The notes under the pieces: model-generated
Databases searched by the model: none
Told to the model about the DNA's origin: nothing
Seen by the model: the letters and a program-made list of their open reading frames with translations, nothing else
Shown here: one piece after another, positions 3,633-64,000 of the stretch
Layout of the letters: each line of letters begins with the position of its first letter
Position numbering within the stretch: the first letter of the stretch is position 1
Made by a program: the position numbers and the translations under genes
NCBI RefSeq assembly: GCF_001677475.2
Contig: NZ_CP015229.1
Source: Escherichia coli
Lineage (GTDB): Bacteria > Pseudomonadota > Gammaproteobacteria > Enterobacterales > Enterobacteriaceae
Strand: one strand, 5' to 3'
DNA: 64,000 nucleotides

Positions 3633-4299
3633 AATAAAGAAAACCTTTTAACGCCAAAACAAAAAAGTATTTCGTCGCGTAGTGTAAGCGATCACTTATT
3701 ATATTTCCACAAAATTTAATCTATTTACAGTCCTGCGCGAGATTATTTCAGCTGTTATTTTCTGAAACTCTCAGAATAATTTCAAGATTATATATTAGCC
3801 ATTTTGATGAGTAATTTAGGTTATTGGTGAACAGAGCGGCGCTCTCTGCTCGCTAATTCCGCAAGCCTGACAACACCAAAGTGAATAAAAATGCAATATA
3901 ACAGAATAAAAGAAAACATCCATCACTGGTGCTTTCTGCTGTTAATGTACATTGTCTGGCATAAAAAATGCTGAAAATGACCCGGTCACGACATACACCG
4001 AATTCTCTACGCTTATAGCGTTACCTCACCCCCAAACTTTCATTAGTGAAATTAAAGGCAAGCTAATATCTAATTGATTTAATTGAAAATAAATCATATC
4101 GGCATGTAAAAATCCACAATGTACAAAAAACGCGCCGTTACGGAATATTTTATCTACAAAAACTGACTAAATAAAAATTTTTCACTAATTGATTAGTCAT
4201 AGCCAGCGATATACGCTATGCGAAAATGCAGATGGCAATGAGATCCACTGCTTTCATCTCCATTAACATCCCATTACGCTTTTATTAAGGAGCATTAGC

Positions 4300-9597: not shown

Positions 9598-9952
9598 GGG
9601 TGTTATTTTCAAAAATATCACTACCCGCGACAGGGAAATAATTCCCGCCAAATAGCTTTTTATCACGCAAATATTTTGTGGCGATCTACACTGATACTCT
9701 GTTGCATTATTCGCCTGAAACCACAATATTCAGGCGTTTTTTCGCTATCTTTGACAAAAAATATCAACTTTTCTCGATTTGCTCTCAGCCCTTATATCAC
9801 GGGAAATTCCGGCGATTTGCTCGCATCAATATTCATGCCACATTTGCCATCAGGGGTTGCCTCAGATTCTCAGTATGTTAGGGTAGAAAAAAGTGACTAT
9901 TTCCATTGGGTAATATATCGACATAAACAAATAACAGGAATCTTTCTATTGC

Positions 9953-11155
9953 ATGGCAATTAAATTAGAAATTAAAAATCTTTATAAAATATTTGGTGAG
10001 CATCCACAGCGAGCGTTCAAATATATCGAACAAGGACTTTCAAAAGAACAAATTCTGGAAAAAACTGGGCTATCGCTTGGCGTAAAAGACGCCAGTCTGG
10101 CCATTGAAGAAGGCGAGATATTTGTCATCATGGGATTATCCGGCTCGGGTAAATCCACAATGGTACGCCTTCTCAATCGCCTGATTGAACCCACCCGCGG
10201 GCAAGTGCTGATTGATGGTGTGGATATTGCCAAAATATCCGACGCCGAACTCCGTGAGGTGCGCAGAAAAAAGATTGCGATGGTCTTCCAGTCCTTTGCC
10301 TTAATGCCGCATATGACCGTGCTGGACAATACTGCGTTTGGTATGGAATTGGCCGGAATTAATGCCGAAGAACGCCGGGAAAAAGCCATTGATGCACTGC
10401 GTCAGGTCGGGCTGGAAAATTATGCCCACAGCTACCCGGATGAACTCTCTGGCGGGATGCGTCAACGTGTGGGATTAGCCCGCGCGTTAGCGATTAATCC
10501 GGATATATTATTAATGGACGAAGCCTTCTCGGCGCTCGATCCATTAATTCGTACAGAGATGCAGGATGAGCTGGTAAAATTACAGGCGAAACATCAGCGC
10601 ACCATTGTCTTTATTTCCCACGATCTCGATGAAGCTATGCGTATTGGCGACCGAATTGCCATTATGCAAAATGGTGAAGTGGTGCAGGTTGGTACACCGG
10701 ATGAAATTCTTAATAATCCGGCGAATGATTATGTCCGTACCTTCTTCCGTGGCGTCGATATTAGCCAGGTGTTCAGTGCGAAAGATATTGCCCGTCGTAC
10801 ACCGAACGGCTTAATTCGTAAAACCCCCGGCTTCGGCCCGCGTTCGGCACTGAAATTATTGCAGGATGAAGATCGCGAATATGGCTACGTCATCGAACGC
10901 GGTAATAAGTTTGTCGGCGCTGTGTCTATCGATTCGCTTAAAGCCGCGTTAACGCAGCAGCAAGGTCTTGATGCGGCGCTGATTGATGCGCCGTTAGCGG
11001 TCGATGCACAAACGCCTCTTAGCGAGTTGCTCTCTCATGTCGGACAGGCACCCTGTGCGGTGCCCGTGGTCGACGAGGACCAACAGTATGTCGGCATCAT
11101 TTCGAAAGGAATGCTGCTGCGCGCTTTAGATCGTGAGGGGGTAAATAATGGCTGA
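9953..11155 (+). CDS. proV: Glycine betaine/proline ABC transporter ATPase ProV
   Basis: 400-aa ORF; Walker [13 protein letters not shown] signature [10 protein letters not shown]-terminal CBS-like region. Confidence 0.92.
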
Positions 11156-12212
11156 TCAAAATAATCCGTGGGATACCACGCCAGCGGCGGACAGTGCTGC
11201 ACAATCCGCAGACGCCTGGGGTACACCGACGACTGCACCGACTGACGGCGGTGGTGCTGACTGGCTGACCAGTACGCCTGCGCCAAACGTCGAGCATTTT
11301 AATATTCTCGATCCGTTCCATAAAACGCTGATCCCGCTCGACAGTTGGGTCACTGAAGGGATCGACTGGGTCGTTACCCATTTCCGTCCCGTCTTCCAGG
11401 GCGTGCGCGTTCCGGTTGATTATATCCTCAACGGTTTCCAGCAATTGCTGCTGGGTATGCCAGCGCCAGTGGCGATTATCGTTTTTGCTCTCATCGCCTG
11501 GCAGATTTCCGGGGTCGGAATGGGCGTGGCGACGCTGGTTTCGCTGATTGCCATCGGCGCAATCGGTGCCTGGTCGCAGGCAATGGTGACTCTGGCGCTG
11601 GTGTTAACCGCCCTGCTGTTCTGTATCGTCATCGGTTTGCCGTTGGGGATATGGCTGGCGAGAAGTCCGCGAGCGGCGAAAATTATTCGTCCACTGCTTG
11701 ATGCCATGCAGACCACGCCAGCGTTTGTTTATCTGGTGCCAATCGTCATGCTATTTGGTATCGGTAACGTGCCGGGCGTGGTGGTGACGATCATCTTTGC
11801 TCTGCCGCCGATTATCCGTCTGACCATTCTGGGGATTAACCAGGTTCCGGCGGATCTGATTGAAGCCTCGCGCTCATTCGGTGCCAGCCCGCGCCAGATG
11901 CTGTTCAAAGTTCAGTTACCGCTGGCGATGCCGACCATTATGGCGGGCGTTAACCAGACGCTGATGCTGGCCCTTTCTATGGTGGTCATTGCCTCGATGA
12001 TTGCCGTCGGCGGGCTGGGTCAGATGGTACTTCGCGGTATCGGTCGTCTGGATATGGGGCTTGCCACCGTTGGCGGCGTCGGGATTGTGATCCTCGCCAT
12101 TATCCTCGATCGCCTGACGCAGGCCGTTGGGCGCGACTCACGCAGTCGCGGCAACCGTCGCTGGTACACCACTGGCCCTGTTGGTCTGCTGACCCGCCCA
12201 TTCATTAAGTAA
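11148..12212 (+). CDS. proW: Glycine betaine/proline ABC transporter permease ProW
   Basis: 354-aa hydrophobic ORF overlapping the proV stop. Confidence 0.9.
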
Positions 12213-39625: not shown

Positions 39626-39642
39626 TGGCACGCAATCTGCAA
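39626..39642 (+). promoter_or_regulatory. Sigma54 (-24/-12) promoter of norVW
   Basis: tggcacgcaatctgca fits the TGGCAC-N5-TTGC class, about 45 bp upstream of the norV start. Confidence 0.75.
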
Positions 39643-45319: not shown

Positions 45320-45467
45320 CAAATTCTCCAGCAATAACAGTTAATGCGCCGATACATTCACAAATCATGCCAGTTTTTAATACACTGTTATTTAAGGAAA
45401 TTAATTTCTGTAATGCAGGAAAAATGATGTCATCGACACTAGTGACGATGACATGTGATGACAATTT

Positions 45468-57673: not shown

Positions 57674-57797
57674 CAGGCATTCCTCAGGTGATTGTCATTT
57701 TTGACGAAAACATGCCGATGAAATGTCATTTTCGACACTCATCGACACGCCCATCCCCAAACAGGCGTAACGCCTGCAAAACGGGCAAAGCCTCAGC

Positions 57798-58259
57798 TCA
57801 TGCTGCCGGGCTTTGTCCCTTTACCAGTTGGCTTAAATTCACCGGCACATTGTTTTCAATGGCGGTATATAAGCTGTCGTAAACGCCAGCGATTTTTTCG
57901 AGATAGTGTTCCAGAACCTGTTCGCGATCGCGGATGTTGACCTTGCCATCAATCATGCCGTCAATGCTCAGTTGCGCCTGCGCAATCCGCTGTTTGTCTT
58001 CGCCATCTTTTGTTTCGACGTAATACTCGATGGTGTGGCTGTTAAAGCCATCCGCCAGGGTGACGTAAATGCGAAAATGTTCAAAAAGGACGAAACAGAG
58101 TTCTTTGTCCGGCGCGCAGCTCATGGCGTGATGCAGGCGCGCTTTCGATAACGTGATCCCCTGAACCAGCGAATTGCAGTAGATGTGCCACTGGTCCTGT
58201 AGGCGACGATGCCGCTGTGCGATGTAATCGGCTTTCTCGCTTATTTCCCAAATAGTCAT
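57798..58259 (-). CDS. hycA: Formate hydrogenlyase regulatory protein HycA
   Basis: 153-aa ORF; first gene of the hyc operon, divergent from hypA. Confidence 0.9.
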   Translation of the reverse strand: MTIWEISEKADYIAQRHRRLQDQWHIYCNSLVQGITLSKARLHHAMSCAPDKELCFVLFEHFRIYVTLADGFNSHTIEYYVETKDGEDKQRIAQAQLSIDGMIDGKVNIRDREQVLEHYLEKIAGVYDSLYTAIENNVPVNLSQLVKGQSPAA

Positions 58260-58296
58260 TGTCAGGTTACCCGTTTAACAGAGATGCCAGTTTTAA

Positions 58297-58311
58297 GCAT
58301 TTTCTGTGCCA
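58297..58311 (-). promoter_or_regulatory. Candidate sigma54 promoter of the hyc operon
   Basis: Minus strand reads tggcacagaaaatgc (GG/GC elements with standard spacing), about 40 bp upstream of hycA. Confidence 0.5.
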
Positions 58312-58424
58312 ACTTTTAATTTATTGTTATTAAAGCGATTTTTAAGCTAAAGATGAATTTCGTCGCCGTGTCGACGTGTCATTTCGACATCATCGACATT
58401 ATTCACCGCAGGGATAATCAACAC

Positions 58425-58440
58425 TGGCACAATTATTGCT
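58425..58440 (+). promoter_or_regulatory. Candidate sigma54 promoter of the hyp operon
   Basis: tggcacaattattgct fits TGGCAC-N5-TTGC, about 30 bp upstream of hypA. Confidence 0.6.
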
Positions 58441-58470
58441 TGTAGCTGGCAATAGTTAATGGGAGGCGAT

Positions 58471-58821
58471 ATGCACGAAATAACCCTCTGCCAACGGGCA
58501 CTGGAATTGATCGAACAGCAGGCCGCAAAACACGGCGCAAAACGCGTAACTGGGGTCTGGCTCAAAATTGGCGCATTTTCTTGTGTCGAAACCAGCTCTC
58601 TTGCCTTTTGTTTTGATCTGGTTTGCCGCGGCAGCCTGGCGGAAGGTTGTAAACTGCACCTCGAAGAACAAGAGGCCGAATGCTGGTGTGAAACATGCCA
58701 ACAGTATGTGACGCTACTAACCCAGCGCGTCCGCCGCTGTCCACAGTGTCATGGTGACATGCTACAGATTGTGGCAGACGACGGTTTACAGATTCGGCGG
58801 ATAGAAATAGACCAGGAGTGA
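58471..58821 (+). CDS. hypA: Hydrogenase nickel incorporation protein HypA
   Basis: ORF 58459..58821; recognised start MHEITLCQRALELIE; zinc CxxC pairs. Confidence 0.92.
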   Translation: MHEITLCQRALELIEQQAAKHGAKRVTGVWLKIGAFSCVETSSLAFCFDLVCRGSLAEGCKLHLEEQEAECWCETCQQYVTLLTQRVRRCPQCHGDMLQIVADDGLQIRRIEIDQE

Positions 58822-58824
58822 GCG

Positions 58825-59697
58825 ATGTGTACAACATGCGGTTGCGGTGAAGGCAACCTGTATATCGAGGGTGATGAACATAACCCTCATTCCGCGTTTC
58901 GTAGCGCGCCATTTGCCCCGGCGGCACGCCCGAAGATGAAAATCACCGGCATTAAAGCGCCTGAATTTACCCCCAGCCAGACTGATGAAGGCGACCTGCA
59001 TTACGGTCATGGCGAAGCGGGCACACACGCGCCGGGCATGAGCCAGCGTCGAATGCTGGAAGTTGAAATTGACGTGCTGGACAAAAACAACCGTCTGGCT
59101 GAACGCAACCGCGCGCGCTTTGCTGCCCGCAAGCAACTGGTGCTCAACCTGGTTTCCAGCCCTGGTTCCGGTAAAACCACCCTGCTGACGGAAACCTTAA
59201 TGCGCCTGAAAGACAGCGTTCCGTGCGCAGTTATTGAAGGCGACCAGCAAACCGTGAACGATGCCGCACGCATTCGCGCTACCGGCACACCAGCGATTCA
59301 GGTGAACACCGGTAAAGGCTGCCATCTTGACGCACAGATGATTGCCGACGCCGCACCGCGTCTGCCGCTGGACGATAACGGTATTCTGTTTATAGAAAAC
59401 GTTGGCAACCTCGTATGCCCGGCCAGCTTCGATCTCGGTGAAAAACACAAAGTGGCGGTGCTTTCCGTTACCGAAGGTGAAGACAAACCGCTGAAATATC
59501 CGCATATGTTTGCCGCCGCCTCGCTGATGCTGCTCAACAAAGTTGACCTGCTGCCGTATCTCAACTTTGACGTTGAGAAGTGCATCGCCTGCGCCCGCGA
59601 AGTCAATCCAGAAATTGAAATCATCCTTATTTCCGCCACCAGCGGCGAAGGGATGGACCAGTGGCTGAACTGGCTGGAGACACAGCGATGTGCATAG
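58825..59697 (+). CDS. hypB: Hydrogenase nickel incorporation GTPase HypB
   Basis: 290-aa ORF; N-terminal [10 protein letters not shown] metal site; P-loop GSPGSGKTT. Confidence 0.92.
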
Positions 59698-62088: not shown

Positions 62089-62161
62089 TAAAATTCTAAA
62101 TCTCCTATAGTTAGTCAATGACCTTTTGCACCGCTTTGCGGTGCTTTCCTGGAAGAACAAA

Positions 62162-64000
62162 ATGTCATATACACCGATGAGTGATCTCGGACAGCAAGGG
62201 TTGTTCGACATCACTCGGACACTATTGCAGCAGCCCGATCTGGCCTCGCTGTGTGAGGCTCTTTCGCAACTGGTAAAGCGTTCTGCGCTCGCCGACAACG
62301 CGGCTATTGTGTTGTGGCAAGCGCAGACTCAACGTGCGTCTTATTACGCGTCGCGTGAAAAAGACACCCCCATTAAATATGAAGACGAAACTGTTCTGGC
62401 ACACGGTCCGGTACGCAGCATTTTGTCGCGCCCTGATACGCTGCATTGCAGTTACGAAGAATTTTGTGAAACCTGGCCGCAGCTGGCCGCAGGTGGGCTA
62501 TACCCAAAATTTGCTCACTATTGTCTGATGCCACTGGCGGCGGAAGGGCATATTTTTGGTGGCTGTGAATTTATTCGTTATGACGATCGCCCCTGGAGCG
62601 AAAAAGAGTTCAATCGTCTGCAAACATTTACGCAGATCGTTTCTGTCGTCACCGAACAAATCCAGAGTCGCGTCGTTAACAATGTTGACTATGAGTTGTT
62701 ATGCCGGGAACGCGATAACTTCCGCATCCTGGTCGCCATCACCAACGCGGTGCTTTCCCGCCTGGATATGGACGAACTGGTCAGCGAAGTCGCCAAAGAA
62801 ATCCATTACTATTTCGACATTGATGATATCAGCATCGTCTTACGCAGCCACCGTAAAAACAAACTCAACATCTACTCCACTCACTATCTTGATAAACAGC
62901 ATCCCGCCCACGAACAGAGCGAAGTCGATGAAGCCGGAACCCTCACCGAACGCGTCTTCAAAAGTAAAGAGATGCTGTTGATTAATCTCCACGAGCGGGA
63001 CGATTTAGCCCCCTATGAACGTATGTTGTTCGACACTTGGGGCAACCAGATTCAAACCTTGTGCCTGTTACCGCTGATGTCTGGCGACACCATGCTGGGC
63101 GTGCTAAAACTGGCGCAATGCGAAGAGAAAGTATTTACCACTACCAATCTGAATTTACTGCGCCAGATTGCCGAACGTGTGGCAATCGCTGTCGATAACG
63201 CCCTCGCCTATCAGGAAATTCATCGTCTGAAAGAACGGCTGGTTGATGAAAACCTCGCCCTGACCGAGCAGCTCAACAATGTTGATAGTGAATTTGGCGA
63301 GATTATTGGCCGCAGCGAAGCCATGTACAGCGTACTTAAACAAGTTGAAATGGTGGCGCAAAGTGACAGTACCGTTCTGATCCTCGGTGAAACTGGCACG
63401 GGTAAAGAGCTGATTGCCCGTGCTATCCATAATCTCAGTGGGCGTAATAATCGCCGCATGGTCAAAATGAACTGCGCGGCGATGCCTGCCGGATTGCTGG
63501 AGAGTGATCTGTTTGGTCATGAGCGTGGGGCTTTTACCGGTGCCAGCGCCCAGCGCATTGGTCGTTTTGAACTGGCGGATAAAAGCTCCCTGTTCCTCGA
63601 CGAAGTGGGCGATATGCCACTGGAGTTACAGCCGAAGTTGCTGCGTGTATTACAGGAACAGGAGTTTGAACGTCTTGGCAGCAACAAAATCATTCAGACG
63701 GACGTACGTCTAATCGCCGCAACTAACCGCGATCTGAAAAAAATGGTCGCCGACCGAGAGTTCCGTAGCGATCTCTATTACCGCCTGAACGTATTCCCGA
63801 TTCACCTGCCGCCACTACGCGAGCGTCCGGAAGATATTCCGCTGCTGGCGAAAGCCTTTACCTTCAAAATTGCCCGCCGACTGGGGCGCAATATCGACAG
63901 CATTCCTGCCGAGACACTGCGCATATTGAGCAACATGGAATGGCCGGGTAACGTACGCGAACTGGAAAATGTCATTGAGCGCGCGGTATTGCTAACACGC
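62162..64000 (+). CDS. fhlA: Formate hydrogenlyase transcriptional activator FhlA, N-terminal ~613 codons (3' end outside window; absent from the ORF track because no stop is reached)
   Basis: Manual translation from ATG 62162 (MSYTPMSDLGQQGLFDITRTLLQQ...) stays open to the window end; sigma54-activator motifs GETGTGKE and GAFTGA near 63400-63540. Confidence 0.88.
   Translation, partial: MSYTPMSDLGQQGLFDITRTLLQQPDLASLCEALSQLVKRSALADNAAIVLWQAQTQRASYYASREKDTPIKYEDETVLAHGPVRSILSRPDTLHCSYEEFCETWPQLAAGGLYPKFAHYCLMPLAAEGHIFGGCEFIRYDDRPWSEKEFNRLQTFTQIVSVVTEQIQSRVVNNVDYELLCRERDNFRILVAITNAVLSRLDMDELVSEVAKEIHYYFDIDDISIVLRSHRKNKLNIYSTHYLDKQHPAHEQSEVDEAGTLTERVFKSKEMLLINLHERDDLAPYERMLFDTWGNQIQTLCLLPLMSGDTMLGVLKLAQCEEKVFTTTNLNLLRQIAERVAIAVDNALAYQEIHRLKERLVDENLALTEQLNNVDSEFGEIIGRSEAMYSVLKQVEMVAQSDSTVLILGETGTGKELIARAIHNLSGRNNRRMVKMNCAAMPAGLLESDLFGHERGAFTGASAQRIGRFELADKSSLFLDEVGDMPLELQPKLLRVLQEQEFERLGSNKIIQTDVRLIAATNRDLKKMVADREFRSDLYYRLNVFPIHLPPLRERPEDIPLLAKAFTFKIARRLGRNIDSIPAETLRILSNMEWPGNVRELENVIERAVLLTR

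Follow-up and report, generated by a model that had tools for sequence, protein, structure and literature searches.

Back-to-back σ54 promoters and a conserved FhlA-type enhancer in the hycA–hypA control region of Escherichia coli

[quoted passage not shown] The gene hycA (57798–58259, minus strand), a 153-amino-acid open reading frame, is the first gene of the hyc operon and encodes the anti-activator of FhlA, and hypA (58471–58821, plus strand) is the first gene of hypABCDE-fhlA. The gene for the σ54 activator FhlA itself (62162–64000, plus strand) starts 73 bp past hypE and is the last of the hyp operon, as the first-pass annotation of this DNA had placed it; it is incomplete at the window end, which falls at residue 612 of 692. 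The identities of the three proteins were assigned by NCBIfam equivalog or subfamily cut-offs: HycA matched NF007567 with 301 bits (cut-off 180), HypA matched NF002979 with 241.6 bits (cut-off 121) and FhlA matched NF011958 with 1381 bits (cut-off 830) over profile positions 1–612 of 692. Both RefSeq and NF011958 call the formate hydrogenlyase activator ‘FlhA’ (flhA), not FhlA, and thus give it a name shared with the flagellar export protein. The transcription units given in published tables are hycABCDEFGHI and hypABCDE-fhlA (Shimada et al. 2021, PMC8743547). Bases 57700–58900 of the window have a match in 5,425 of 5,426 complete E. coli genomes, with a top identity of 99.8%; the matching stretch is annotated as hycA, hypA and hypB, and our hycA and hypA calls agree with those of RefSeq in a genome of 99.8% identity. 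The closest-matching genome, that of strain CU42ET-1, carries an IS5-family element between hypE and fhlA (10469–11622 of its locus), an insertion that would split fhlA from the hyp promoters; the corresponding hypE–fhlA spacer of the window (62089–62161) is an uninterrupted 73 bp. The strain is one other than K-12: in the 211-bp hycA–hypA spacer, which contains both σ54 motifs described below, three bases (58291, 58304 and 58336) differ from those of MG1655, none of which hits the GG or GC dinucleotides of either motif.

The first-pass annotation had proposed -24/-12 elements of the σ54 type ahead of hypA and, on the opposite strand, ahead of hycA, with the hyc-side -12 element being the weaker match, and both of its strings are indeed present within 58260–58470. 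The hyp motif, TGGCACAATTATTGCT (58425–58440, plus strand), has its GG at 58426–58427 and its GC at 58438–58439, shows no mismatch to TGGCAC-N5-TTGCW and is identical in sequence in K-12. The hyc motif, TGGCACAGAAAATGCT (58311–58296, minus strand; shown in the first-pass annotation in a shorter form, tggcacagaaaatgc, 58311–58297), has its GG at 58310–58309 and its GC at 58298–58297 and carries one mismatch to the same consensus, an A for T at position 12 (-15, base 58300). Both motifs thus have GG and GC exactly ten bases apart and stand on the correct strand a short distance before the gene that they drive. When the window was scanned with a σ54 position weight matrix (PWM) derived from 186 promoters (matrix from PMC7658346), the hyp motif scored 18.96 bits and ranked first of ~128,000 positions, and the hyc motif scored 15.57 bits and ranked third; the gap of 3.4 bits arises almost wholly at position 12, which bears out the weaker hyc -12 element. 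The G at 58304 is a single-nucleotide difference from K-12 in the spacer of the hyc motif (AGAAAA here, AAAAAA in K-12), and this variant is also found in other Escherichia genomes. The transcription starts were predicted by the convention of Table 1 of Bonocora et al. (PMC4591121), where the predicted starts lie 26 nt (hycA) and 20 nt (hypA) before the start codons. Hence hyc transcription is predicted to start at 58285 (minus strand), 12 nt past the C of the -12 element, and hyp transcription is predicted from the motif geometry to start at 58451 (plus strand), with a GGGAGG ribosome-binding site at 58461–58466 within its 20-nt leader. A second CTGGCA is found 22 nt downstream of each -24 TGGCA (58285–58290, minus strand; 58446–58451, plus strand), ending at the predicted start; the GGC at this place is no more than semi-conserved in other genera.

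To judge the strength of the motifs, we note that a search for the IUPAC pattern that tolerated one mismatch gave four sites in the whole window against 3.75 expected, which is chance level, and we therefore relied on the matrix scan and on shuffles instead. For the right strand within the 211-bp spacer, the expected number of equally good sites is ~2 × 10^-5 for the hyp motif and ~5 × 10^-4 for the hyc motif, and for both motifs jointly, placed and oriented as they are, the expectation is ~1 × 10^-8. Of 200 shuffles of the window that preserved its dinucleotides, only five had a site anywhere that equalled the hyp motif. For the hyc motif, 0.3 to 0.8 equally good sites are expected per window, so that it is, taken alone, not significant window-wide; its significance comes from its position and strand.

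Among the other σ54-like sites in the window are the known norV promoter, TGGCACGCAATCTGCA (39626–39641, plus strand), which ranks second by the σ54 matrix, the hydN promoter (45357–45372, minus strand), a published σ54 site of the FhlA regulon, and the antisense site OA04 (9825–9840, minus strand) published by Bonocora et al. The fourth-ranked site, TGGCACATCTACTGCA (58190–58175, minus strand; 14.98 bits), is located within hycA in sense orientation and does not appear in the K-12 ChIP-seq tables. The possibility that it is a third promoter was weighed and rejected: its bases encode W-H-I-Y-C-N, and its GC is lost via the synonymous Cys codon TGT in about one-fifth of the orthologues. The site is probably a by-product of coding. 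Also missing from the K-12 ChIP-seq tables is TGGCATAAAAAATGCT (3957–3972, plus strand; 13.9 bits) in the alaE–stpA region. The 800 bp around this site are present at ≥99% identity in only 24 of 5,426 E. coli genomes, compared with 4,664 of 5,426 for the hyc–hyp stretch, which indicates that the window is a mosaic of rare and common alleles.

Orthologous spacers were collected by searching one genome per species with an N-terminal coding pattern of hypA, which excludes the elements under test; this gave 120 loci, and the 92 that have a divergent upstream HycA homologue form the orthologue set. The 92 spacers are all distinct and represent about 25 genera of Enterobacteriaceae, including Escherichia, Salmonella, Citrobacter, Enterobacter, Kluyvera, Kosakonia, Buttiauxella, Cedecea and Mangrovibacter. 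In all 92, the best hyp-strand site reads TGGCA[CT]-N5-TTGC[AT] and lies 27–34 nt before the hypA ATG (42 nt in one case), and the best hyc-strand site, likewise in 92 of 92, reads TGGCA[CT]-N5-[ACG]TGC[TC] and lies 34–37 nt before the hycA ATG, with TGGCA and TGC being invariant in both motifs throughout. When 60 representatives were aligned with MAFFT, the only invariant blocks were the two TGGCA, the two TGC, a central TGTCA.T.TCG.CA and, ahead of hypA, the GGAG of its ribosome-binding site. Both promoters thus stand out clearly as phylogenetic footprints. At three Buttiauxella loci (L105, L112 and L114) the spacers are 801–836 bp long, compared with the usual ~210 bp, and the extra DNA is located between the central enhancer described below and the hyp promoter.

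The divergent σ54 promoters of hyc and hyp are textbook biology, and the first-pass annotation had itself called them known; they were first described by Lutz et al. 1990 (‘divergent NtrA-dependent promoters’), a work that two papers cite for this locus. In K-12, σ54 ChIP-seq peaks fall on the same two motifs: peak OS27 is assigned to hycA (motif TTGGCACAAAAAATGCT, minus strand, fold-above-threshold 91) and peak OS28 to hypA (motif CTGGCACAATTATTGCT, plus strand, fold-above-threshold 201) (Bonocora et al. 2015, PMC4591121), and Table 1 of the same study flags the two promoters as having experimental confirmation in EcoCyc. Genomic SELEX with σ54 holoenzyme in vitro likewise gave a peak in the hycA–hypA spacer (PMC8743547). 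In Salmonella LT2, ChIP-chip placed σ54 at TGGCATGGAAAATGCTTA (hycA) and TGGCATAAATATTGCTTT (hypA), and expression of both operons depended on σ54, by 26-fold (hyc) and 5.6-fold (hyp) (Samuels et al. 2013, PMC3844500). Occupancy of both promoters by σ54 in the strain of the window is thus predicted by carrying over data from K-12 and Salmonella.

We also scanned the spacer for promoters of other types. No σ70-type promoter facing hypA was found in a consensus scan of the spacer; the sole σ70 consensus match lies inside the hyp motif and faces hycA, and a count of one such match is at chance level. The 5′ end of hypA is known to hold an internal FNR-dependent promoter for hypB onward, and an FNR ChIP-seq peak from published work (U00096.2 coordinate 2,848,688) maps there (~58490). 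No match to the FNR consensus with up to three mismatches was found in 58400–58700, and the FNR consensus scan across the whole window was uninformative. Visual inspection shows a bare TTGAT pentamer near 58508, some tens of bases from the start of hypA.

Between the two promoters lies an FhlA-type enhancer (upstream activating sequence), TGTCGACGTGTCATTTCGACATCATCGACA (58369–58398, plus strand), identified by an FhlA PWM and by conservation; the first-pass annotation was silent on it, as it was on the IHF-like site described below. The invariant core of this enhancer, TGTCATTTCGACA (58377–58389), holds CATTTCG, the left half of the FhlA consensus CATTTCGTACGAAATG, which Hartman et al. 2016 (PMC4987338) credit to Leonhartsberger et al. 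2000. The FhlA PWM (14 columns) scores 16.19 bits at 58385–58398, ranking second in the window. The core, TGTCA-N3-5-CGNCA, recurs in all 92 spacers and always on the same strand; its recurrence was judged by regular expressions and conservation, not by the fixed-spacing matrix, which scores the conserved 13-nt core poorly in many genera, so that our enhancer call leans on conservation more than on the matrix. The distance from the core to the -24 T of hyc is 44, 55–58 or 65–68 bp in all 92 spacers, whereas that to the -24 T of hyp is mostly 46–48 or 58–62 bp and reaches 672 bp, and every large insertion, up to ~620 bp, is on the hyp side of the enhancer. This suggests a compact unit of enhancer and hyc promoter, with hyp being tolerant of distance. 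The stepped hyc–enhancer distances (44, ~57 and ~67 bp) are separated by roughly one helical turn and may further point to helical phasing, as judged from a small number of independent insertions and deletions.

A second FhlA-type enhancer is found in the hycA–hycB spacer (57693–57747, plus strand) and is a candidate distal enhancer for hyp. It consists of TGTCATTTTTGACG (57693–57706) and TGCCGATGAAATGTCATTTTCGACACTCATCGACA (57713–57747), and with 17.44 bits at 57724–57737 it contains the highest-ranking FhlA PWM match in the window. A local pairwise alignment of 57713–57747 with the first enhancer at 58369–58398 gave identity at 28 of 30 positions. Of 75 orthologous hycA–hycB spacers, 73 have a site that scores ≥9 bits with the FhlA matrix, the commonest best site being the palindrome GTCATTTTTGAC (57694–57705 in the window). 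Schlensog et al. 1994 and Leonhartsberger et al. 2000 are said to have found that the distal hycA–hycB site activates hyp. This second enhancer stands 20–33 nt before the start codon of hycB and may also have a role at the RNA level.

An IHF-like site, TAACAATAAATTA (58329–58317, minus strand), with one mismatch to the consensus WATCAANNNNTTR, lies within a 49-bp tract of 82% A+T (58312–58360) that abuts the -24 element of hyc. At the homologous position several other genera have a perfect ATCAA-N4-TTA. An IHF footprint between the hyc enhancer and promoter was reportedly obtained by Hopper et al. 1994. The hyc and hyp operons are both listed as activated by IHF in published work.

The first-pass annotation had further suggested that the pair is under formate/FhlA-dependent control, and the enhancer between the motifs agrees with this. 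The published FhlA half-site, the FhlA PWM matches and the presence of fhlA in the hyp operon are together consistent, at the level of sequence, with membership of the FhlA (formate) regulon, and FhlA is listed as the known or predicted activator of both Salmonella operons (PMC3844500). We considered whether the promoters, although real, could have a main or additional activator other than FhlA, namely HyfR, a paralogue from the same activator family, or, for hyp, a nitrogen-responsive one. In one study hypA was induced under nitrogen limitation, so that FhlA may not be the sole input, but NtrC binding upstream of hypA was not found in that study (PMC4591121). Given the FhlA sites, the Salmonella assignments and the position of fhlA in the hyp operon, we regard another activator as very unlikely. 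Deletion of fhlA with hyfR left intact reportedly abolishes all formate induction.

The preferred reading, FhlA-activated σ54 promoters on both sides of the spacer, has also to be weighed against one in which only the hyp motif works and the hyc motif is vestigial, with hyc being read from another promoter. In favour of this, the -12 region of the hyc motif is off consensus, with its A at -15 and a score 3.4 bits below that of hyp, and the hyc ChIP-seq peak, ~130 bp from the stronger hyp peak, could partly be bleed-through. However, the hyc motif keeps its TGGCA and TGC, and its distance from the hycA ATG, in every one of the 92 spacers; the σ54 dependence measured in Salmonella is the larger for hyc; σ70 signal is absent at hyc in FNR ChIP-seq work; and it is hyc, not hyp, near which the enhancer stays. 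We consequently regard a vestigial hyc motif as extremely unlikely. That both motifs are chance σ54 lookalikes in an A+T-rich spacer, with no promoter function, has in its favour the chance-level IUPAC count and the 0.3 to 0.8 hyc-grade scores expected per window, but it is a negligible prospect given the joint placed expectation of ~1 × 10^-8, the invariance of TGGCA and TGC amid varying surrounding bases and the coincidence of ChIP-seq, ChIP-chip and SELEX signals with the motifs.

Overall, we consider it almost certain that the 211-bp spacer is the formate hydrogenlyase control region with back-to-back σ54 promoters, PhycA and PhypA. PhycA would drive hycABCDEFGHI, and with it hydrogenase 3 and the anti-activator HycA, and PhypA would drive hypABCDE-fhlA, and with it the maturation proteins and the activator FhlA. 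At each promoter RNA polymerase with σ54 would wait as an inactive closed complex. FhlA would bind the enhancer at 58369–58398, and probably also the second copy in the hycA–hycB spacer, and, once bound by formate, would spend ATP to open the closed complexes; an IHF-type bend in the A+T-rich tract would swing the enhancer, ~66 bp away, onto the hyc promoter. The binding of formate by FhlA and its activation of both promoters are published, as is the counteraction of FhlA by HycA; we infer the exact starts, the looping geometry and the enhancer that serves hyp. With one promoter making the activator and the other its antagonist, the arrangement would provide positive (fhlA) and negative (hycA) feedback.

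The two promoters differ in a consistent manner across the orthologue set. Among the 92 spacers, the hyc motif has at its position 12 (-15) a G in 45 cases, an A in 28, a C in 19 and never a T, whereas position 12 of the hyp motif is T in all 92, and the neighbouring position 11 of the hyc motif is T in 33. On a neighbour-joining tree, the hyc -15 base has undergone at least eight changes among A, C and G; the probability that eight changes to random bases would all avoid T is ~0.04, and the avoidance of T is thus suggestive only. From these comparisons we entertain, with more doubt than conviction, the possibility that selection has kept the asymmetry, holding hyc sub-optimal (never T at -15) and close to its enhancer. 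If so, hyc would be a weak promoter that depends on IHF and the enhancer and has strict activator specificity, and hyp would be a strong, distance-tolerant promoter that is possibly served by the second enhancer in the hycA–hycB spacer. The high hyc ChIP-seq signal in K-12 is not an obvious fit with a weak binder. We know of no description in the literature of the never-T hyc -15 or of an enhancer spacing that is tight for hyc only. The check mainly shows that the first-pass annotation had picked real promoters from raw sequence; its value otherwise lies in a precise map, for this strain, of both promoters, the enhancer, the IHF-like site and the second enhancer copy, and the comparison between genera offers a small testable point, that of two σ54 promoters in one spacer that may be tuned differently.

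With respect to known systems, PhycA and PhypA of K-12 are this very locus, with an identical hyp motif, enhancer and IHF-like sequence and with equal distances to the start codons; of the three spacer bases that differ, one is within the hyc motif, in its non-critical spacer. The pair in Salmonella Typhimurium LT2 is also divergent, with the 5′ ends of the motifs 114 bp apart, as in the window, and with ATGCT on the hyc side and TTGCT on the hyp side, again as in the window; it differs in having T and not C at position 6 of both motifs and in its spacer bases. Weak closed-complex, IHF-assisted σ54 promoters are known, for example Klebsiella nifH. The hyc promoter resembles this class in that its -15 base is not T and that an IHF-type site separates it from its enhancer, but the activator and the signal differ. 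The other members of the FhlA regulon, fdhF, hydN-hypF and hyf, also have σ54 promoters with FhlA enhancers, but these are single promoters, whereas hyc and hyp form a back-to-back pair in one spacer.
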